The position numbers and the translations under genes are program-made. Shown here one piece after another: positions 4,631 through 63,714 of a stretch of 64,000 bases of DNA. Position 1 is the first letter of the stretch, and each line of letters starts with the position of its first letter. The DNA lies in contig OY729431.1 in the NCBI GenBank assembly GCA_963422395.1, positions 1,152,001-1,216,000 of the forward strand, read 5' to 3'. The stretch comes from Vicinamibacteria bacterium (GTDB lineage Bacteria > Acidobacteriota > Vicinamibacteria > Marinacidobacterales > Marinacidobacteraceae). The notes under the pieces were generated by a model that searched no databases, was not told where the DNA came from, and was given only the letters and a program-made list of their open reading frames with translations.

Positions 4631-5695
4631 GTGGTTGATGGCAGCGAAGTCGGAAAACGGCGCCGAGCCTCGGAAGCGGCGATGGGTTCTCCTCCCCTCA
4701 TCGTTTTGGCGCTCGTCGGGCCGACGGCCTCCGGCAAATCGAATCTCGCGGTCCGGCTCGCCCGCCGCCTTCCCTTTCCGGTGGAGATCGTTTCCTGCGA
4801 TGCCTTTCAGGTGTATCGCGGGCTCGACATCGGTTCGGGGAAACCTCCTTTCGCCGCGCGTGGAGGTCTTCGACATCATCTTTTCGATACCCTGGAGCCG
4901 GATGATCCGTGCACTGCGGGCCGGTACGCCGAGCTCGCTGCGGCAGCCATTCGGGGGATCGCGAACCGGGGCGCGATTCCCCTGGTCGTGGGGGGAAGCG
5001 GCCTCTACTTCCGCGCCCTGCGGGACGGAATCTTCTCGGGACCCGGGCTCGATCCGCGCCTCCGCGAGCGGCTCCAATCGCTGTACCGCCGGCCCGCCGG
5101 CGGCCGCTGGCTCTCCCGACTACTCGCCCGGCTCGACCCCGAATCCCACCGCCGCATCCATGGCAACGACCAGGTGCGCCGGGTGCGCGCCCTCGAAGTA
5201 GCCATCGCTTCCGGGGAACCGATTTCAAGGCTTCGGGAGGAGCGCCGCCCTCCGCTTCCGGGTGCCTGCTGGCGGGTTGCCGGCCTGGACCTTCCGCGCC
5301 CGGAGCTCGATGTGCTCATCACCGCGCGCGTTCGGGGGATGTTCGATTCGGGTCTGGTGGAGGAGGTTCGCGGTCTTCGGGACCGTTTCGGCGACCGCTG
5401 GCCGGGACGCTTCGCCATCGGGTACCGGGAGGTTCTCACCGCCCTCGTCGAAGCGTCCGACGCTTCGGAGGTCGAACGGAGCCTGGCAGCGAGCGAGGCG
5501 CGGATCGTCAGCGCGACCCGCCGTTATGCCCGGCGGCAGCGGACCTGGTTCCGCGCCGAGCGGGAAGTGCGGTGGTATCCGGGCGGCGGCGAGGATTCCG
5601 CGGTACTGGAATCGGTGCTGCGGCAGTTCGCGGCGCCGAGAGTTCGAGGAGGAGCCGGGCCCCGGTCGGCTACCCTTCCCCTGGTAGCAACTTGA
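4631..5695 (+). CDS. miaA: tRNA dimethylallyltransferase
   Basis: GPTASGKS, DAFQVYRGLDIGSGKP, VGGSGLY, TRRYARRQRTWF. Start may be the ATG at 4682. Confidence 0.96.
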   Translation: MVDGSEVGKRRRASEAAMGSPPLIVLALVGPTASGKSNLAVRLARRLPFPVEIVSCDAFQVYRGLDIGSGKPPFAARGGLRHHLFDTLEPDDPCTAGRYAELAAAAIRGIANRGAIPLVVGGSGLYFRALRDGIFSGPGLDPRLRERLQSLYRRPAGGRWLSRLLARLDPESHRRIHGNDQVRRVRALEVAIASGEPISRLREERRPPLPGACWRVAGLDLPRPELDVLITARVRGMFDSGLVEEVRGLRDRFGDRWPGRFAIGYREVLTALVEASDASEVERSLAASEARIVSATRRYARRQRTWFRAEREVRWYPGGGEDSAVLESVLRQFAAPRVRGGAGPRSATLPLVAT

Positions 5696-6330
5696 ACCAT
5701 CCAAGACGCCCGCGCGCCGGAAAGGTCCGCCTCCGGATCCTGGCGGGATGCCTGCTCGCGGTGCTGGCGCCGCTCGGGATGGCGCGCGAAGTCCGACCTT
5801 GGCAGCAGCAGCCGCCGGATCCCGTAGAAACCGGCGCCTGGTTCAAGGTGCTCGGACTGAGCTCCGGGTCGCCGGAGCCGGTGGTGCTCTCCGAAGCGGA
5901 AACGAACGCCTTGCTGGGATCGGTCCAGCTTTCCGCCCTCTTCGCCGAACGGGCCGGCCTCTTGGGGCTGAGCGCACGGCTGCTGCCCGATGAGGTGCGA
6001 CTCTCGGGGATGCTGGACGGCGGCCTCGCCGCCCGGATCCTCGGCCCCCTGGCCCCCGCGGGCGGCCAGCAGCCATTCGAGACCGTGCTCCGGCTCGAAG
6101 GCACTGACGGATCGGGGGAAGCGAAGGTCCTCCGCGGCACGGTGGCGGGTCTCGAGGTGCCGGCTCCCCTGCTGACCGGCGTGATCGTTTCGGTGATCCA
6201 CGAGATTCTTCAGGACTCGGGGTCCTCCGAGAGTTTCGATCCGGACGCGTCTTTCCCCCTGCCGCGGGCCATCGCGGGCTTCGAAGTGAGGAGCGGCGAG
6301 ATCCTGCTGACTCCGGCGCCGCCCGGCTGA
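5692..6330 (+). CDS. Hypothetical exported protein (LmeA/DUF2993-like lipid-binding fold possible)
   Basis: TTG start overlaps the miaA stop. Hydrophobic N-terminal segment, then LSEAETNALL and a beta-rich C-terminus (FPLPRAIAGFEVRSGEILL). Confidence 0.6.
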   Translation: MNHPRRPRAGKVRLRILAGCLLAVLAPLGMAREVRPWQQQPPDPVETGAWFKVLGLSSGSPEPVVLSEAETNALLGSVQLSALFAERAGLLGLSARLLPDEVRLSGMLDGGLAARILGPLAPAGGQQPFETVLRLEGTDGSGEAKVLRGTVAGLEVPAPLLTGVIVSVIHEILQDSGSSESFDPDASFPLPRAIAGFEVRSGEILLTPAPPG

Positions 6331-6354
6331 GGGGAAGCCCGAAATCCGGCTTCG

Positions 6355-8520
6355 TTGCCCGCCACCGGACCGGATACCGAGGTCCGCGACCTTCCCGGGG
6401 TCGGACCGCGCCGGGCGCGGGCCCTCGAAGACGCCGGAATCCACCGGGCCGGCGATCTTCTGCTCCGCCTTCCGTTCCGCTACGAGGACCGGAGCGCCCG
6501 CCGCCGGGTCTCCGAGATGTCGGATGGCGAGGCGGCCTCGGTGGAAGTGGCGGTCGAGTCGCTGGAGGTCCGACCGACCCGCCGCCGCGGGCTCCGCATC
6601 GTCGAGCTGCGCGGGTACGACGGGAGCGAACCGGTGCGGGCGACCTGGTTCAACCAGGTCCATCTGAAACATATTCTGCGGCCGGGGCGGCGGGTTCTGC
6701 TGTTCGGCCCGGTCAAGCGGGCGTTTGCGGGCGGCGCGCCCATGCTGAACAACCCGCGCTACGAACTCGTGGAACCCGGACAGCTGGAACCCGGACTGAC
6801 GGCGCCCCGGGGGGACGGCGCTGCCCCCCAAGAGCCGGGGGGCAGCCCTCATGTCGGCCGGATCGTGCCCATCTACGAACGGATCGGAACCCTCGACCCG
6901 AGGGCGCTGCGGGGGATCCTCCATCATCTGATCGGCTCGGAATCTGCGGCCGGGGCCGGTTACCTGCCCGCTGCGCTCGCTTCCCGGCTGCAGCTGCCGT
7001 CGCGGAAGAGGGCACTCGAAGAGGTCCACTTCCCCCCGCCCGGCGCTTCGCTCGAGACCTTCGAGCGGCGAAGGTCTTCCGGCCACCAGCGGCTGATCCT
7101 CGAGGAGTTCTTCCTCTTCGCTCTCGGCCTCGAGCTCCGACGCCGGCAGGACCGCACTGCTCGGGCTGGCGGATCCACTTTCGCCGTGGACGACGGCCTC
7201 CGCAGCCTGGTGCGGCGGGTGCTCCCGTTCCGCCTCACCCCTTCGCAGCGGGAGGCGCTCGCCACCATGGCCCGGGAGTTCCAGTCGCCGTTGACCATGA
7301 GGCGATTGCTGCAGGGCGATGTGGGTTCGGGAAAGACCATCGTGGCGGTGATCGCCGCGCTCATCGTGATGCACCACGGAGCGCAAGCGGCCCTCATGGC
7401 GCCGACCGAAGTGCTCGCCGAGCAGCACTTCACCACGATCCGGGGGCTTCTCGAACCGCATGGGATCCGGGTCGCTCTGCTGACCGCGGGACTCGGCGCC
7501 GCCGACCGCCGCGACACGCTGACCGCGGTGGCTTCCGGCTGGACCCAGTTCGTGGTGGGGACCCATTCCCTGATCCAGGAGGGCGCGAAGTTCCGCAACC
7601 TCGGTTTCGCCGTCGTGGACGAGCAGCACAAATTCGGCGTCGCCCAGCGCAGCAGCCTGTTGGAACGAGGAGGCGGCTGCGATCTGCTGGTCATGACCGC
7701 GACGCCGATCCCTCGCTCGCTCACCATGGCGCTGCACGGGGATCTCGATCTTTCGGAGTTGCGGGAGCTCCCCCCCGGCCGCCAGCCGATCCGGACCCTC
7801 GTTCGCCCCAGTGCGGAACTGCCGGGGGTGTACCAGAGCGTGCGCAACGAGGTTCGGCAGGGGCGGCAGGCGTTCCATGTGTGTCCCACGATCGACGAGT
7901 CCGAAGAGAGCCCGGGGTCTGGCGTCGAGGCCCGCTTCCGGCAGCTCGCCGACGGGCCGTTTCGGGGGCTGAAGGTGGATTTCGTCCACGGCCGGATGCC
8001 CTCGGTGCGCCGGGAACGGACGATGGCCGCCTTCGTCCGGGGAGAACTGGAGGTGCTGGTCGCCACCACGGTGATCGAGGTCGGCGTGGATGTCCCGAAC
8101 GCGACGATGATGGTGGTGGAAAACGCCGAGCGGTTCGGCCTGGCGCAGCTGCATCAGCTGCGGGGCCGCGTCGGTCGGGGTGCCCATCCAGCCACCGCGG
8201 TGCTGGTGGTCGGGGGCCGGCCCACCGAAATGGCTCGCCGCCGGCTTCGAGTTCTCGAGGAGACCAGCGACGGATTCCGAATCGCCGAGGAGGACCTCGC
8301 GATTCGTGGACCGGGCGACTTCTTCGGCACCCGCCAGTCGGGAATCCCGCCCTTCCGTGTCGCCGACATCGTGCGCGACGCCGATTTCTTGCGCCTCGCC
8401 CGCAAAGAGGCCGCGTCTTTCCTCGCTTCGAGCGCCATCGGAACCGCGGAAGGGCGGCGAATCCTCACCCATGTGCGCGCCATCTGGGGAGAGCGGTTTC
8501 GTCTGGCCGCGGCGGGGTAA
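6355..8520 (+). CDS. recG: ATP-dependent DNA helicase RecG
   Basis: LQGDVGSGKT, DEQHKFG, MTATPIPRSL, QLHQLRGRVGRG, DGFRIAEEDLAIRGPG. Confidence 0.98.
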   Translation: MPATGPDTEVRDLPGVGPRRARALEDAGIHRAGDLLLRLPFRYEDRSARRRVSEMSDGEAASVEVAVESLEVRPTRRRGLRIVELRGYDGSEPVRATWFNQVHLKHILRPGRRVLLFGPVKRAFAGGAPMLNNPRYELVEPGQLEPGLTAPRGDGAAPQEPGGSPHVGRIVPIYERIGTLDPRALRGILHHLIGSESAAGAGYLPAALASRLQLPSRKRALEEVHFPPPGASLETFERRRSSGHQRLILEEFFLFALGLELRRRQDRTARAGGSTFAVDDGLRSLVRRVLPFRLTPSQREALATMAREFQSPLTMRRLLQGDVGSGKTIVAVIAALIVMHHGAQAALMAPTEVLAEQHFTTIRGLLEPHGIRVALLTAGLGAADRRDTLTAVASGWTQFVVGTHSLIQEGAKFRNLGFAVVDEQHKFGVAQRSSLLERGGGCDLLVMTATPIPRSLTMALHGDLDLSELRELPPGRQPIRTLVRPSAELPGVYQSVRNEVRQGRQAFHVCPTIDESEESPGSGVEARFRQLADGPFRGLKVDFVHGRMPSVRRERTMAAFVRGELEVLVATTVIEVGVDVPNATMMVVENAERFGLAQLHQLRGRVGRGAHPATAVLVVGGRPTEMARRRLRVLEETSDGFRIAEEDLAIRGPGDFFGTRQSGIPPFRVADIVRDADFLRLARKEAASFLASSAIGTAEGRRILTHVRAIWGERFRLAAAG

Positions 8521-56363: not shown

Positions 56364-58289
56364 ATGAGCAAGATCATCGGTATCGATCTGGGTACCACGA
56401 ACTCGGTCGTCGCGGTGATGGAGGGTGGGCAGCCCACCATCATCCCGAACGCCGAGGGGGGGCGAACCACCGCCTCGGTAGTGGGAATCGCCAAGTCCGG
56501 CGAACGGCTCGTCGGGGAGGTGGCGAAGCGGCAGGCCATCACCAACCCCGAGAACACCGTCTTCTCCATCAAGCGCTTCATGGGGCGGCGTTACGACGAG
56601 GCCCAGGAGGAACGGGGGACGGCTCCCTACGAAATCATCCGCAAGGACGACGGCATCGAAGTGTCGATGAGCGGCAAGGGCTACAGCCCGCCAGAAATCT
56701 CGGCCATGGTGCTGCAGAAGATGAAGGCGTCCGCCGAGAAGTACCTCGGCGAGACCGTTGAGCGGGCGGTCATCACCGTCCCGGCCTACTTCAACGATTC
56801 GCAGCGGCAGGCCACCAAGGACGCCGGCGAAATCGCCGGACTCGAGGTCGTGCGCATCGTGAACGAGCCCACCGCGGCCGCGCTCGCCTACGGCCTCGAG
56901 AAGCAGAAGAGCGAGAAGATCGCGGTTTACGACTTCGGCGGCGGGACCTTCGACATCTCGATCCTCGAGGTCGGAGAGGGGGTGGTGGAGGTTCGTTCCA
57001 CGAATGGAGACACCTACCTCGGCGGAGACGACCTCGACAAGCGGGTGCGCGAATGGATCGTCGCCGAGTTTCTGAGGTCTGAGGGGATCGACCTCAGCGC
57101 CGATCGGATGGCGTTCCAGCGGCTCACCGACGCCGCCGAGAAGGCCAAGGTCGAGCTCTCGACCACTCACGAGACGGAGATCAACCTGCCGTTCATCACC
57201 GCCGACGCCTCCGGGCCGAAGCATCTGGTGCTGACTCTCTCCCGATCGCGGCTCGAGTCCCTGATCGGCGAACTCCTGGAGCGGACCCGCAAGCCCTGCC
57301 AGCAGGCGATCGAGGACGCCGGGCTCGGCGGGAGTTCCGTCGATCAGGTGGTGCTCGTCGGTGGCACGACTCGGATCCCGCGGGTCCAGCAACTCGCGGA
57401 GGAGATCTTCGGAGTCGAACCGCACCAAGGGGTGAACCCGGACGAGGTCGTCGCTCTCGGCGCCGCGATCCAGGCGGGAGTGCTCGGGGGCGAAGTCAAG
57501 GACCTGCTGCTGCTCGATGTCACCCCGCTGTCGCTCGGCATCGAGACTCTCGGCGGGGTCTTCACGCCGCTCATCGAGCGAAACACCACGATCCCGCATC
57601 GGGCCAGCAATGTCTTCTCGACCGCTAGCGACAACCAGACCGAGGTCGAGGTCCATGTGCTCCAGGGCGAGCGGTCCATGGCTTCCGACAACCGAACCCT
57701 CGGGAAGTTCAAACTGGTGGGGATTCCGCCGGCGCCGCGCGGGGTTCCGCAGGTCGATGTGGCCTTCGACATCGATGCCAACGGCATCGTGAATGTCTCG
57801 GCGAAGGACCAGGCGACCGGGCGGGAGGAGGCGATCACCATCACCGCCTCGAGCGGACTCAGCAAGGACGAGATCGAGACGATGAAAGCCGAAGCGGCCT
57901 CCAACGAAGACGCGGACCGGCAGCGCCGCGAGGATGTCGAGTTCCGGAACGAAACCGATGCCCTCGCCCACCAGGTCGAGAAGCTGCTGGAAGAAAACCG
58001 CGAAAAGATCGAAGGTTCCGATGCGGACACGATCGGCAAGGCGGTGTCGGCGGCGCGCGCGGCGCTCAAGGACGGCGACATGGACCGAATTCGCTCCGCC
58101 CGGGCCGAGCTGGAGAAGGCGAGCCACCGGCTCGCGGAAGTCATGTACCGGAAGACTTCGGGCTCCGGGGAAGAGGCTGCCTCAGATGCCCCGCCGCCCC
58201 CGCCGCCTCCACCCGGCGGTAAGAAGAGCAAGGGGAACGGCGCCGCCGACGGCGACATCATCGACGCCGAGGTGGTAGGAGACAACTGA
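56364..58289 (+). CDS. dnaK: Chaperone DnaK
   Basis: [38 protein letters not shown]. Confidence 0.99.
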
Positions 58290-58333
58290 GGGGTCGTGGG
58301 CGCCGCGCCCTCCGTCAGCAGTATCCCCGGAGG

Positions 58334-59491
58334 ATGAGCAGCCGGCCGAAGACCAGCCCCGGCGGCGCGGACTACTACGCCGTGCTGGGGGTGGTGCGCA
58401 CTTCCGACACCGCCCGAATCCGCCAGGCGTACCGGCGGCTGGCGCGCCGGATGCATCCGGACCTGAACCCGAACGACCGAACTGCCCGGGAGCGCTACCA
58501 GGAGATCCAGCGGGCCTGGGAAGTGCTCGGCGATCCGGAGCGGCGCGCCGAGTACGACCGCTGGGGCAGCCGCGAACCCGCTCCCGCGGTGGTGACCCAG
58601 GTGCACTACGGCTTCGCCGGCTTCGATTTCGGCGGCGACCCGGCCACCGATTCCGGGGCGCTCCACGAGATCTTCGACAGCCGCGGCGAGCCGGACCCGG
58701 GGGAGCCGGAAGCTGCTGCGGACATCCATGCCAGAGTGAGGGTCTCGTTCCTCGAATCGCTGGAAGGCAAGCAGATTCGGTTGCGGGCGGTACGGCAGGA
58801 GACCTGCGAACCCTGCGGCGGTCGCGGCGAACAGCCCGTCGGCGGATCGTTTCTCGACAGTGGAGCCGGTTGTCCGGCCTGCTCCGGGTCGGGACGGCGC
58901 ACCCGCCGGTACGGCCACATGGTGTTCGTGCGTCCCTGCCGGCGGTGTAATGGACAGGGAGTGCTGCTCCATGTCGCCTGCCGCCGGTGCGGCGGGAGCG
59001 GGCGCTGCGCCCGTCCGGCCCGGCTCATCGCCCGGCTTCCCGCTGGAGTGGCCGATGGCGCCACGATCCAGGTGGAGGGCAAGGGGCACCACCGGGGCCC
59101 GGGAGAGCCTCCCGGCGATCTCCAGCTCCATGTGGAGGTGGCTCCGCATCCGGTGCTCGAACGCCGCGGCGACAACCTCATCTGCCCTTTGCCGCTGACC
59201 CTCGCCGAGGCGGTGCTCGGCGGCCGGATCGAAGTGCCGACGCTCTCCGGGCCGGTCACGGTGCGCCTGCCGCCGGGAGTCCAGCCCGGTACCCGCGTCC
59301 GGCTCGCCGGCCGCGGCGTTCCCTCGACCCGGGGGGATGCGCGCGGCGACCTCTTTCTCGAGGTGCGGATCCACATTCCGGAGATCCGTGACGACCGGTC
59401 GCGGGATCTGGTGCGGGAGCTTTCGGCTCGTTATCCCGAGTCCCCCCGGGATGCTCTCCGTGAGAAGCTTCGGCCGGAGGATTCCCGATGA
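58334..59491 (+). CDS. dnaJ: Chaperone DnaJ
   Basis: J domain with HPD, four CxxCxGxG repeats, C-terminal domain. Confidence 0.93.
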   Translation: MSSRPKTSPGGADYYAVLGVVRTSDTARIRQAYRRLARRMHPDLNPNDRTARERYQEIQRAWEVLGDPERRAEYDRWGSREPAPAVVTQVHYGFAGFDFGGDPATDSGALHEIFDSRGEPDPGEPEAAADIHARVRVSFLESLEGKQIRLRAVRQETCEPCGGRGEQPVGGSFLDSGAGCPACSGSGRRTRRYGHMVFVRPCRRCNGQGVLLHVACRRCGGSGRCARPARLIARLPAGVADGATIQVEGKGHHRGPGEPPGDLQLHVEVAPHPVLERRGDNLICPLPLTLAEAVLGGRIEVPTLSGPVTVRLPPGVQPGTRVRLAGRGVPSTRGDARGDLFLEVRIHIPEIRDDRSRDLVRELSARYPESPRDALREKLRPEDSR

Positions 59492-59901
59492 GCGCGGAAC
59501 GCCGCCGGGGCGTGTACATGATCAGCGCCGTCGCCGAGATCTGCGGCGTCCACCCGCAGACGCTCCGACTCTACGAACGCGAGGGACTCCTCCGGCCCTC
59601 GCGCACCGAGGGGAACACCCGGGTGTACACCGATGAGGATCTCGAGCGACTGCGGACGATCCTCAACCTGCGGGAGCTCGGGGTGAATCTGGCCGGCGTG
59701 GACATCATCCTCGACATGCGCCGCAAGATGGAACGCATGCAGGAGGAGATCGCCCAATTCACCGAGTTCATCCACCGGGAACTGGCGCGGGAGGAGAGCG
59801 CGCTCAGCGAAAGGACCAGGAACGCGCTGGTCAGACTTCCCCGGCAGGACATGGTGCGCGTTGCCGAGGCGCCGGGGAAGGACGACGCCGCCGGAAGATA
59901 G
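59488..59901 (+). CDS. hspR: MerR-family heat-shock repressor HspR
   Basis: YMISAVAE..VHPQTLRLYEREGLLRPSRTEGNTRVY, LGVNLAGV. Follows dnaK-dnaJ. Confidence 0.88.
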   Translation: MSAERRRGVYMISAVAEICGVHPQTLRLYEREGLLRPSRTEGNTRVYTDEDLERLRTILNLRELGVNLAGVDIILDMRRKMERMQEEIAQFTEFIHRELAREESALSERTRNALVRLPRQDMVRVAEAPGKDDAAGR

Positions 59902-59923
59902 AGCCTGCCGGCAGAGAACATCG

Positions 59924-60661
59924 TTGCCGAAGAAGGAACGCTGTCCCGACTGCGCCGGTACCCGCTGGAAGCCGGCGGTCGGCCCGAACGGATCGAGCGG
60001 AGTCGAGCCCTGCCATTGCCGGCCATCGGCTCCGGTTCCAGCGAGCCTTGCCGAAGTCGGAGTGCCGCTGCGCTTTCGCGACAATGCCCGCTTCGAATAT
60101 TTCGACGAGAAGATCTCCGAGGATCTTCGGCGCGCCAAGCAGACGGTGCGGAAGTGGGCTGACGCCTATCCCGATGTGGAGACGGGGCTCGTGCTCACCG
60201 GTCCTGCCGGAGTCGGCAAGACGCATCTCGCGGTTGCAGTGCTCCGCCGCATCCTCCTGGAGCGAAAGATCTCTGCCCGCGTGGGCTTTTTGTATCTCCC
60301 GCAGTTTCTCCGAGACGGGCAAGGGAGCCGGCGGGAGGTCTTGGAGGCGGAAAGACGCTGCATCGAATGGGCCGCCAGGGCCGAGATCCTGGTGTTCGAC
60401 CAGCTCGGCGCCGATATGGCGAGCCGCTTCGGCCAGGAACGAGAAGAAAAGCTCCTCTATCTCCTGACCCGGTGCTTCAACAACGGAGTTCTGCTCCTCT
60501 GCACTACCGTCTATCCGTTCGAAGCCTCGGCCTATCAGCCGGCGCTCTCCGAGCGGATCACCCACCGCGCGGTTTCGCTGCTGCGGGAGGCATGTCGGAC
60601 GGTGCCCATCGTCGGCCAGGACTACCGCGATACTGTCTTGCGCCATGGGCTGGGCGTCTGA
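59924..60661 (+). CDS. DnaC/IstB-like ATP-binding protein with N-terminal Zn-binding motif
   Basis: CPDC...CHC, Walker A GPAGVGKTHLA, Walker B-like ILVFDQLG, C-terminal GQDYR. TTG start inferred. Confidence 0.82.
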   Translation: MPKKERCPDCAGTRWKPAVGPNGSSGVEPCHCRPSAPVPASLAEVGVPLRFRDNARFEYFDEKISEDLRRAKQTVRKWADAYPDVETGLVLTGPAGVGKTHLAVAVLRRILLERKISARVGFLYLPQFLRDGQGSRREVLEAERRCIEWAARAEILVFDQLGADMASRFGQEREEKLLYLLTRCFNNGVLLLCTTVYPFEASAYQPALSERITHRAVSLLREACRTVPIVGQDYRDTVLRHGLGV

Positions 60662-60703
60662 ACGCCCGGCGGACCGCTTCGCATCCCCAAAGGAGATCCG
60701 GCA

Positions 60704-61525
60704 ATGCGCCTTCTTTTCCCTTCCTTCGCTCTCGTCAGCGTGCTGCCGCTCGCCGCGGCCGCCCAGGGCCCGGCGCCCGACAAGCCGCGGCCGATCCCCA
60801 TCCGGGACAGCGTCTTCATCGAGGACCTCACCTGGATGGAAGTCCGCGACCTGATCGCCGCCGGGAAAACCACCGCCATCGTGGCCAGCGGCGGCGTGGA
60901 ACAGAACGGACCATACCTGGTCACCGGCAAGCACAATGTCCTGTTGCGCGGCGTCACCGAAGCGATCGCCCGCGACCTGGGCGACGCGCTCGTGGCACCC
61001 ATCCTGAAGCTGGTGCCGGAGGGGGACTTCGATCCCCCGAGCGGGCACATGCGCTATCCCGGAACCGTGGGGCTCAGCGAAGAGACCTTCCGAGCCGTGG
61101 TGCGGGATGTCTGCCGCAGCCTCCGCGCCAGCGGCTTCGCCGACATCGTCCTGATCGGCGACAGCGGCGGCAATCAGGCCGGGATGAAGGCGGTCGCCGA
61201 GGAACTGAATGCCGCGTGGGCCGGCGCTCCCGGCGTCCACTACATCCCGGAGTACTACGACTACTCCGGACTCCAGACCTGGCTCGCCGACCGCGGGATC
61301 GAGCAGACCCCCGAGGGGATCCACGACGACTACGCCATCACGGCGATGATGGCGGCGGTGGACCAGAACTCGATCCGCGCCTCGGAACGCCGCCAAGCCG
61401 ACCTCTTCTCGATCAACGGGGTCGAGGTGGACCCCCTCGACGAGACCAGGTCCTGGGGGCGCCAGCTCTTCCGCTACCGTGCCGAAGTCACGGTTCGGGC
61501 CATTCGCGACGCGATCGGTCGGTGA
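60704..61525 (+). CDS. Creatininase-family protein with signal peptide
   Basis: IEDLTWMEV, GGVEQNGPY, PGTV, GDSGGNQ. AAGGAG RBS. Confidence 0.85.
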   Translation: MRLLFPSFALVSVLPLAAAAQGPAPDKPRPIPIRDSVFIEDLTWMEVRDLIAAGKTTAIVASGGVEQNGPYLVTGKHNVLLRGVTEAIARDLGDALVAPILKLVPEGDFDPPSGHMRYPGTVGLSEETFRAVVRDVCRSLRASGFADIVLIGDSGGNQAGMKAVAEELNAAWAGAPGVHYIPEYYDYSGLQTWLADRGIEQTPEGIHDDYAITAMMAAVDQNSIRASERRQADLFSINGVEVDPLDETRSWGRQLFRYRAEVTVRAIRDAIGR

Positions 61526-61603: not shown

Positions 61604-62341
61604 TCAGCGACTCTTCCCGGAGCGGTCGAGGATCGCCGCGCGGCGCACCTGCGACTCTTCGGAACACCAGGAGTCGAGGAACCGCTCGCGGTTTTCGGCG
61701 CGGCTCTCGGCGGCGCGGGCCGCGAACTCCCTCCGGAGTTCTCGTTTCGTGTGGACATACGCCTCGCGCGGCAGCGCGCCGAGCTCTTCCGCCCGCTCTG
61801 CGGCACGGACGAGGAGCCCATCTGCCGGCGCGAGTTCATGGAGGAAACCGCTCCTCACCGCTTCCCCGGGGCCCGTCAGCCTCCCTCGGAGGAGCACTTC
61901 CGCAGTGCGGGACGGCGCGATGGCGCAGCGGAGGATTTCGAAGGCGGCCGCCGGGAAGATGACCCCCAGCTGGACCTCGGACACGCCGATCCGGTAGTCC
62001 CCTTCGGCGCCGATTCGGACATCGCTCGCGGCGGCGAGGATCGCCCCCCCGGCTACGGCGTGCCCGTTCACTGCAGCTACGGTCGGGCAGGGGAACCGGA
62101 AGAGCCGGAGCAGCAGATCCTCGAAGGCGTCCACGAACTCTCCGAGCTCTGTCCGGTCGGTGGGCAGTCCGGCGAGATCGAGGCCGGCGGAAAAGAAGCC
62201 ACCCGCCCCGGTCAGGACCAGCGGCCGACCGGCTGCTTCCGCCTCATCGAGGCTTTCGGCGAGCCGGGAAAGGAGGAGGGGGCCGATGGCGTTCGCGCGG
62301 CCGTGGCGAAGCGCCGCCACCACCGCCCGGTGCCGGGGCAT
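61604..62341 (-). CDS. Enoyl-CoA hydratase/isomerase-family protein
   Basis: FFSAGLDL, AAVNGHAVAGG, SEVQLG. Confidence 0.92.
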   Translation of the reverse strand: MPRHRAVVAALRHGRANAIGPLLLSRLAESLDEAEAAGRPLVLTGAGGFFSAGLDLAGLPTDRTELGEFVDAFEDLLLRLFRFPCPTVAAVNGHAVAGGAILAAASDVRIGAEGDYRIGVSEVQLGVIFPAAAFEILRCAIAPSRTAEVLLRGRLTGPGEAVRSGFLHELAPADGLLVRAAERAEELGALPREAYVHTKRELRREFAARAAESRAENRERFLDSWCSEESQVRRAAILDRSGKSR

Positions 62342-62399: not shown

Positions 62400-63077
62400 C
62401 TACTCGAGGGCATCGAGTGCTTCCATCAGGGGGCCGTAGTCCTCCCGGATCTGATAGTCGTAGTTGACATAGCGCAGGATTCCCTGCCGGTCGATCACGA
62501 AGGTGGCCCGGGAGGCGTAACGCGCCCCATTGATCTCGATGGGTTCGACGCCGTAAGCGTCCACCACCTGCGCCAGCCGGTCGGAGAGGAGAACCAGACC
62601 TGGAAGCTCGTCCCCTTCGGCAGCCGGTTCGTCGGCGCCGCCGCCGTCTTTCGAAAAACTCTCGAGCCAGTTCCACTGGGAGAAGGGGGAATCCACGCTG
62701 ATTCCGAAGACCTGGGTGTCCGCATCCAGAAACTTCCGGATGTCGTCCTGGTAGGACGAAAACTGCCGCGTTCAACCACCGGTCCAGTCGGCGACATAGA
62801 AGGCGAGAACGATGTTCTTGTTGCCGAGTACTTCTTCGAGTGCGATCGCCCGGGCGCCCGGACGCTCGCCGGCGGTCGAGGGCAGCGGGGCGGGAAAGGC
62901 CGGCGCCCGGTCTCCCACCTGCAGCGGGCCGTCCTGAGCCGCAGCTTTCGGCGTCATCGCTTCAGGCGCTTCCCCGGCAGCGGCGCCGCCTTCGGCAATG
63001 CCGGCGCTGAGGAGCGCCGCAGCCAGCGCCGACGCGGCGAGCCGCGCATCTCGCGGCTGGCGAGTGATTTCTTGCAT
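62400..63077 (-). CDS. AhpC/TSA peroxiredoxin-like protein, probable selenoprotein (in-frame TGA at 62772-62774)
   Basis: LQVGDRAPAF...VLAFYVADWTGG-TGA-TRQFSSY...VFGISVDS...LLSD...SRATFVID in one frame. GGGGAGG RBS before the ATG at 63077. Confidence 0.88.
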
Positions 63078-63237
63078 GGACGACCTCCCCGAACGAAAGC
63101 ACGGCAGCGGATCATGCCGCCTCGCCGCCCGCCCCGCAAGGGCTCTTCCGGGATGGAGGCCCGCCACCGTGGTGCTATTCTGAACTTTCGCTCCGACTAC
63201 GCTCCCGGCTCTCTTCCCGAAAGGCTTCGACCGATCT

Positions 63238-63714
63238 GTGACCCTGACCTTCCGCACCCGCATCGAGACCGAAGTGCGCGATCTCGAAGAGGAACTGCAC
63301 CTCCGGCTTCCCGAGCAGATCAAGGAAGCTCGGGAACACGGCGATCTGTCGGAAAACGCCGAATACGAGGCGGCCAAGGAGCGGCAGAACTATGTGGCGA
63401 TCCGGCTCGCCCAGCTCAAGAAACGGCTCGCCGATCTCTCCATGCTGAGTGTCGAGAACATCCCGGTGGACCGCATCTCGCTCGGCAGCGAGGTGCGGGT
63501 CTTGGACTTGGGCACGGATGAAGAGCACCGGTACGAGCTCGTGGTGAGCGAGGAGGCCGACGCGAGCAAAGGCCGAGTGTCTCTCGGTTCGCCGATCGGC
63601 CGAGCCCTCATGGGCTCGCGGGTCGGAGATGAAGTCAGCGTCCACACGCCGGCCGGCGAGCGGGAACTCGAGGTCGTCGCACTGCGCACGATCCACGATC
63701 GGGAGCAGCGTTGA
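63238..63714 (+). CDS. greA: Transcription elongation factor GreA
   Basis: AREHGDLSENAEYEAAKE, SLGSPIGRAL. Confidence 0.95.
   Translation: MTLTFRTRIETEVRDLEEELHLRLPEQIKEAREHGDLSENAEYEAAKERQNYVAIRLAQLKKRLADLSMLSVENIPVDRISLGSEVRVLDLGTDEEHRYELVVSEEADASKGRVSLGSPIGRALMGSRVGDEVSVHTPAGERELEVVALRTIHDREQR

Follow-up and report, generated by a model that had tools for sequence, protein, structure and literature searches.

An interrupted gene on the minus strand of an Acidobacteriota contig probably encodes an exported selenocysteine (Sec) peroxiredoxin decoded at UGA102, a reading to which we assign a probability of roughly 0.7 as a whole. The gene lies at 63077..62400 (-) of the window, i.e. the whole 64,000 nt stretch of DNA that was analysed, and comprises 225 codons with a lone in-frame TGA as codon 102. 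Judged separately, this codon very likely specifies Sec, and the sequence makes export of the protein and a function as peroxidase each likely, if to a slightly lesser degree. Sec recoding is strongly supported by the pairing of Cys and TGA in one alignment column, the conservation of the TGA, the RNA constraint on a hairpin conforming to the bacterial SECIS model, and a tRNA-Sec at the locus of a distant family member (L021).

Translation confirms the proposal of the initial annotation that two called open reading frames are a single frame broken by a TGA. The coding sequence, supported by translation and Pfam, would yield 225 amino acids if TGA is read as Sec. The TGA itself is located at 62774-62772 (-) in the context FYVADWTGG-U-TRQ, and the second called frame begins 25 codons past it. 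Regarding the limits set by the ORF caller, the start at TTG 63377 is probably not the real one; the likelier start is an ATG at 63077, which has a putative Shine-Dalgarno sequence (GGGGAGG, 63084..63090 (-)) 6 nt ahead of it. A terminator-like stem-loop directly upstream of this start (63101-63120 (-)) may have arisen by chance at the GC content of the window (68.6%). The read-through product contains no Cys at all and carries the conserved catalytic Arg190 within SRATFVID (62508..62510 (-), Arg in 62/62 homologs), both as previously described, and it ends at a TAG stop.

The Pfam domain AhpC-TSA is matched over its full length by the read-through product (1-124 of 124, 80.9 bits, cut-off 26). 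The 3’ half alone reaches 25.3 bits, which is below the cut-off, and the 5’ half alone gives no Pfam match. The domain is therefore complete only upon read-through, which supports one recoded gene. In PDB alignments the TGA falls on the peroxidatic Cys. An alignment with 62 full-length homologs of 29-43% identity, taken from the best 8000 candidates scored, shows Cys at this column in 51 of them and Trp in the remaining 11. Hence the Cys/TGA pairing that the initial annotation suggested looking for is present, and its placement of the TGA at the peroxidatic position holds.

A search among shorter proteins resulted in 93 matches out of 99 candidates with identities of 50-92%. All 62 close N-terminal pieces stop exactly before the TGA column (61 at WTGG, one at WTGT). 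The remaining 31 matches cover the C-terminal part and all lack Cys. The GTDB genomes were scanned with a pattern open to either TGA or TGG at the column and unrestricted at the Pro site, which is thus unable to give a Cys-to-Sec ratio. At least 123 matches at no fewer than 120 loci were obtained. Among the matches listed the codon is TGA in 121 of 123 and TGG in two, and the downstream frame is open for at least 78 codons past all 121 TGAs. The taxa of the matches listed are mostly Acidobacteriota, with Poribacteria, Chloroflexota and Myxococcota also represented.

These data bear on the most conservative explanation, namely that the TGA is a true stop (by pseudogenisation, a sequencing error or a two-gene split) or is read as Trp or Gly throughout the organism. 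The 11 database proteins with Trp at the column would fit, as would the two TGG codons, one of which (L035, at a contig end) belongs to an apparently peroxiredoxin-like match; the other (L005) is a chance match. Against a true stop, the same stop recurs in 62/62 close pieces and in the 121 genome matches listed. A split would lose the active site, as no start codon is found close to the TGA. Moreover, TGA terminates 6 of 7 neighbouring genes in the window and 3 of 4 genes checked in the related loci L017 and L048; it is therefore an ordinary stop in this organism, which argues against reassignment. We consider this explanation largely refuted and extremely improbable.

Trp as the genuine residue at the site was rejected on the basis of the genome DNA, where 121 of the 123 matches listed have TGA. 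Since the same motif carries TGA there and the Trp-bearing proteins are interspersed with TGA loci in the tree, Trp at the protein level is probably TGA read as Trp by gene callers. The Trp entries (P0002-P0004, P0007, P0018 and six more) all derive from contigs of ~1 kb. In the motif of L035 (59-94), close to the contig end, the codon at the catalytic column is indeed TGG, either by an assembly error or as a true Trp variant. Two family-like proteins, P0174 and P0255, exhibit Asp or Ser at this column and are possibly inactive members. In Poribacteria (L014 at 10001 and 10454, likewise L036 and L098) in-frame TGA motifs are paired at a distance of 453 nt, which by sequence represent a tandem two-domain, double-Sec peroxiredoxin. 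The two-domain protein P0157 has a V...C motif in its first domain and ends with FYVYAFTGG in the second, and probably combines a Cys domain with a downstream Sec domain. On the FastTree tree at least 22 swaps between Sec and Cys are counted.

Among the matches listed, the motif FYVADWTGG is common to the window and four loci (L017, L048, L101 and L112), all from Acidobacteriota and two of them named Ca. Marinacidobacterales or Marinacidobacterium. Pairwise identities across these five members range from 62 to 83%. They form one well-supported long branch in a quick tree and in the FastTree tree, both of which comprise few columns and long branches. The gene is preceded by a divergent greA (63238..63714 (+)) and followed on its own strand by a gene of the enoyl-CoA hydratase family (61604..62341 (-)), both assigned by profile matches. 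This order is retained in L017 and L048, which suggests a chromosomal, inherited locus. A plasmid search retrieved merely distant homologs with <60% identity, and no redox or reductase partner recurs across the 78 neighbourhoods examined. Further along the window (56364-61525 (+)), a series of genes is directed at the peroxiredoxin gene: dnaK, a dnaJ-like gene, a regulator that by eye is MerR/HspR-like, a DnaC/IstB-like ATPase and a creatininase-family gene with a signal sequence. The latter three have counterparts in L017, as judged by eye.

The RNA 3’ of the TGA folds into two abutting hairpins, in agreement with the initial annotation as far as their presence is concerned. Hairpin 1 (62743..62759 (-), +13..+29 after the TGA) has a stem of 7 bp and a loop ACC without G, and is conserved. 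Hairpin 2 (62723..62742 (-), +30..+49) has a stem of 8 bp, a loop AGUU, an energy of -9.7 kcal/mol and a distance of 37 nt from the UGA. The consensus for bacterial SECIS elements given in PMC13188914 (Fig 2) comprises a loop of 3-9 nt with G at loop position 1 or 2 and a stem of 4-16 bp, together with a spacing of 16-37 nt and an energy ≤ -7.5 kcal/mol. We applied these rules through an implementation of our own instead of bSECISearch. Hairpin 1 does not conform; it may be a spacer or a lower stack. Hairpin 2 conforms in every respect, its spacing being at the top end of the range, and does so in the window and in 4/4 close relatives. The SECIS prediction advised in the initial annotation is thus positive in all five clade members. 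Compared to the E. coli fdhF SECIS and the consensus model, the candidate shares a stem-loop 3’ of the UGA and G followed by U in the apical loop. It differs by consisting of two abutting hairpins with the AGUU loop 37 nt away, whereas fdhF has a single stem-loop with the loop GGUC.

Taken alone the hairpins are weak evidence. The same SECIS test is passed by 130 of 1011 TGA triplets in the window (13%). Fold stability and Rfam were dropped as evidence for a SECIS, as the fold of the 101 nt region reaches a z-score of only -0.79 (47 of 200 shuffles are as good) and no SECIS match to Rfam is found. Support for the hairpins comes from synonymous constraint. Considering residues invariant in the five sequences, codons are identical in 10/10 cases within +13..+49 vs 8/66 elsewhere (p = 5e-8). 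When matched for degeneracy, the values are 6/6 vs 6/18 (p = 0.007) and 3/3 vs 0/46 (p = 5e-5). The constrained codons include TTT, which the neighbouring genes use 7 times vs 46 times for TTC. Pairing is kept in 75/75 cells across the five sequences with two one-sided changes, and there are no compensatory pairs among these close sequences.

In the family as a whole a strict test demanding a perfect stem is passed by 26 of the 121 listed genes and failed by 95. With the window included, 27/122 pass, compared to an expectation of 1.6 from synonymous resampling. Even higher pass rates (up to 0.42) are reached at sham positions 9-12 codons downstream, owing to a second hairpin at +53..+71. In L001, L058, L009, L044 and others this is an 8-bp covarying hairpin with an fdhF-like loop. 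In three subgroups of the listed loci, 38 of 40 members form all 8 pairs, and compensatory changes occur, for instance at pair 55-69 (AU 29, GC 10, UA 1). The hairpin stands behind a large-loop hairpin at +18..+46 and hardly ever occurs together with the proximal G-loop hairpin seen in other subgroups. This distal hairpin, located ~60 nt from the UGA in about a third of the listed family members and hence beyond the accepted SECIS range, is a candidate to act as SECIS. For comparison, 12.6% of the entries in BSepDB are reported to have no canonical SECIS (PMC13326102).

Searches with E. coli SelA, SelB and SelD (E 1e-5, positive control functional) revealed no selA, selB or selD in the 64 kb window or in 120 listed loci (1.39 Mb). 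The sole tRNA in the window is tRNA-Ala. A tRNA-Sec is found in only one of the 120 listed loci, L021, scoring 78.5 bits at a distance of 3.6 kb from the peroxiredoxin copy of a distant family member; L021 also has a weak match to the N-terminus of selB (E 1e-4). Adjoining this tRNA is a TlpA/redoxin-like ORF with CxxC and the end SG-TGA-SSKN-stop, the two features together being placed at 5433-6002 (+) and 6314-6404 (-) of L021. Judging by its sequence it is likely a second selenoprotein, and it is a possible reductant for the Sec-peroxiredoxin. A looser scan for other selenoproteins in the window resulted in 18 candidates; judged by eye, the target is the only one of them with a redox motif. 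PMC1794560 names Acidobacteria among the groups that have selenoproteins.

The UGA might also be read in a SECIS-dependent manner as Cys by a SelC*/tRNA-ReC, resulting in an ordinary 1-Cys peroxiredoxin. tRNAs of this type are described to decode UGA as Cys ahead of SECIS elements (PMC13582414), and such recoding would leave the identical sequence signature. However, the SelC* tRNAs reported in that source belong to Armatimonadota, Desulfobacterota and JAPLJL01 genomes, alongside canonical tRNA-Sec, and the one UCA tRNA found here (L021) scores as canonical tRNA-Sec. We regard Cys at codon 102 as very unlikely and retain Sec as the preferred reading.

The structure of the protein was predicted with the TGA residue folded as Cys (pLDDT 92, pTM 0.89). 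In the model this residue is at the start of the helix following the motif strand. A clade-specific insert at about residues 91-110 is of low confidence. TM-scores vs Bcp4, AhpE and BcpB are 0.76-0.77, and the best PDB matches of the family profile are 2ywn and AhpE. The superfamily residues T99, U102 (if Sec) and R190 are kept. The active-site motif V95-x3-T99-x2-U102 (62772..62795 (-)), derived from the sequence and from homolog and PDB alignments, has Val in place of Pro, a residue called absolutely conserved (PMC4749874, PMC3322552) and essential (PMC4749874) in these sources. Strict membership in Pxxx(T/S)xxC fails at this site, while fold and other residues hold. A residue other than Pro is present in 69 of the 121 TGA loci listed and in 16 of 154 Cys rows.

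The replacement of Pro by Val looked at first like a perfect selenium adaptation, with Pro in 51/51 Cys homologs and Val in 11/11 Trp homologs. This was ruled out by the 52 of 121 listed TGA loci that keep Pro and by the 16 Cys rows without it, and over 12 independent pairs no coupling of Pro loss to Sec is found (median p = 1). The substitution pointed out in the initial annotation is hence real, yet not specific for selenium, being a lineage trait also present in Cys forms. In most members of the wider family (71 of 122 rows, some of which end at 100 residues) position +99 or +100 is occupied by Cys, which from its position is likely the resolving Cys and probably lies on helix alpha5. The window clade has no resolving Cys, as the protein and 31/31 close C-terminal pieces are free of Cys.

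Loss of Pro and of the resolving Cys together with the clade-specific insert could have given an exported selenoprotein a selenol redox function other than that of a peroxidase, e.g. as a sensor or a persulfide or disulfide reductase. The long branch, the low confidence of the insert and the fact that none of the 10 matching NCBIfam models reaches its cut-off agree with this, as does the essential role ascribed to Pro (PMC4749874). On the other hand, the protein keeps Thr and Arg, the model shows an intact fold, and forms without Pro are common in the group with either Cys or Sec. A change of function appears unlikely to us, and a peroxidase is the favoured assignment.

Concerning the subfamily, the window protein is very probably, based on its sequence, an AhpE/BCP-like peroxiredoxin of an Acidobacteriota clade. 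AhpE and BCP/PrxQ proteins (M. tuberculosis AhpE 1xxu, Sulfolobus Bcp4 3hjp, 2ywn) are the best profile and fold matches at only 25-29% identity. The AhpE signature, PxAF(T/S)xxC with Glu after the catalytic residue region (PMC5302317), is absent from the window protein, which reads VADWTGGU followed by TRQ. The BCP/PrxQ signature, P(K/A/R)(D/A)xTxGC and G(V/I)SxD in the same source, corresponds to V-A-D-W-T-G-G-U and GISVD, departing at Pro and by Sec for Cys. Hence GISVD and the Gly that precedes the catalytic residue in PrxQ proteins are shared. The wider family shares the AhpE-type AF(T/S) motif and often the late Cys (PMC4749874, PMC5302317). The window clade differs by DW in place of AF, by the missing Pro, by Sec at the Cys position and by its leader. 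With these mixed motifs it may belong to either AhpE or BCP/PrxQ.

A signal-peptide-like N-terminus had been noticed before and is supported by a heuristic used in place of SignalP (at least 20 residues, a hydrophobic core and a non-negative n-region). The leader comprises about residues 1-34 (62976..63077 (-)) with A28, A34 or A47 as candidate cleavage sites, a best 11-residue hydropathy of 2.29 and a net n-region charge of +1. It shows neither a twin-Arg motif nor a lipobox. The heuristic is passed by the window protein, 58 of 62 close N-halves and 33 of 35 nearer full-length homologs vs 1 of 27 distant Cys homologs. A cytoplasmic selenoprotein would result if translation started at M41, an in-frame ATG at codon 41, or if the leader were not a signal peptide. 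The long polar n-region is compatible with this, as is the Met or Val that immediately precedes the core in many relatives. However, inspection of the sequence by eye reveals a strong Shine-Dalgarno before M1 and a weak one before M41. Moreover, the basic-hydrophobic-AxA leader is found in 58/62 relatives despite divergence, some of them with Ala at the M41 site. We thus hold a cytoplasmic location to be improbable and favour export. The putative 1-Sec nature (no Cys in the clade) and the export are both deduced from sequence only.

Sec-containing peroxiredoxins are known from other bacteria, PrxU of Eubacterium acidaminophilum reportedly being one. The window protein scores 36.8 with the NCBIfam PrxU model NF040737 (cut-off 270). 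It shares with bacterial Sec-Prx the domain and presumably Sec at the peroxidatic position, and differs in having VxxxTxxU instead of PxxxTxxU, a signal-like leader and no Cys. Sec-Prx (PF00578, TxxU) is listed as an experimentally supported selenoprotein family (PMC13188914), is treated as a known family in PMC9312934 and is represented by 43 genes in the Sargasso Sea data (PMC1088965). A precedent for peroxide reduction in the envelope is PprX of Caulobacter crescentus, a cell-envelope PrxQ with a signal sequence that is reduced by TlpA/ScsB (PMC3322552). As likened here by description, PprX has Cys, a complete PxxxTxxC and a resolving Cys. Unlike PprX, the window protein has no resolving Cys, and the neighbourhood scan found no ScsB/TlpA gene near it. 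BSepDB covered Acidobacteriota genomes by tblastn for Sec/TGA pairs (PMC13326102) and may already hold family members. In the portions of the literature covered (including PMC10778597, most subscription journals being outside its scope) we found neither an exported, Pro-less or Acidobacteriota Sec-Prx nor a natural coding-region SECIS at ~60 nt. Sec-Prx and exported peroxiredoxins are thus each known, while their combination was not found in the literature searched.

Based on these findings, SelB with Sec-tRNA would bind hairpin 2 and decode UGA102. The preprotein would cross the membrane through the general secretion pathway and have its leader cleaved. In the cell envelope, a selenolate held by Thr99 and Arg190 could then reduce H2O2 or organic hydroperoxides. 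As the protein has no resolving Cys, an outside thiol would be needed to recycle the oxidised Sec, by analogy with Caulobacter PprX. A periplasmic thioredoxin-like protein supplied via a carrier of the DsbD/CcdA/ScsB type is the likeliest reductant from this analogy, if with a somewhat less than even chance. If selenium is missing, translation would stop at codon 102 and no enzyme would be made.

We tentatively extend this reading to a widespread, mostly mis-annotated family of envelope seleno-peroxiredoxins in Acidobacteriota and others, although this wider claim has a somewhat less than even chance. The window clade would be a Cys-free, Pro-less branch that has to be recycled in the periplasm with no resolving thiol of its own. 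The family would use three or more SECIS layouts, including tandem hairpins with the SelB-binding loop 37 nt (this clade) or ~60 nt (38/40 members of three subgroups) from the UGA. If true, the ~60 nt layout extends the 16-37 nt rule for bacterial SECIS, and hairpins deviating from the model offer a test of how far from the UGA such an element can sit. A peroxiredoxin with neither the ‘invariant’ Pro nor a single Cys would be a natural test of peroxiredoxin catalysis and Sec recycling. The reading would restore an antioxidant enzyme whose database entries are split or mistranslated for well over a hundred genomes, mostly of Acidobacteriota, and points to a selenium-dependent peroxide defence in their cell envelope.
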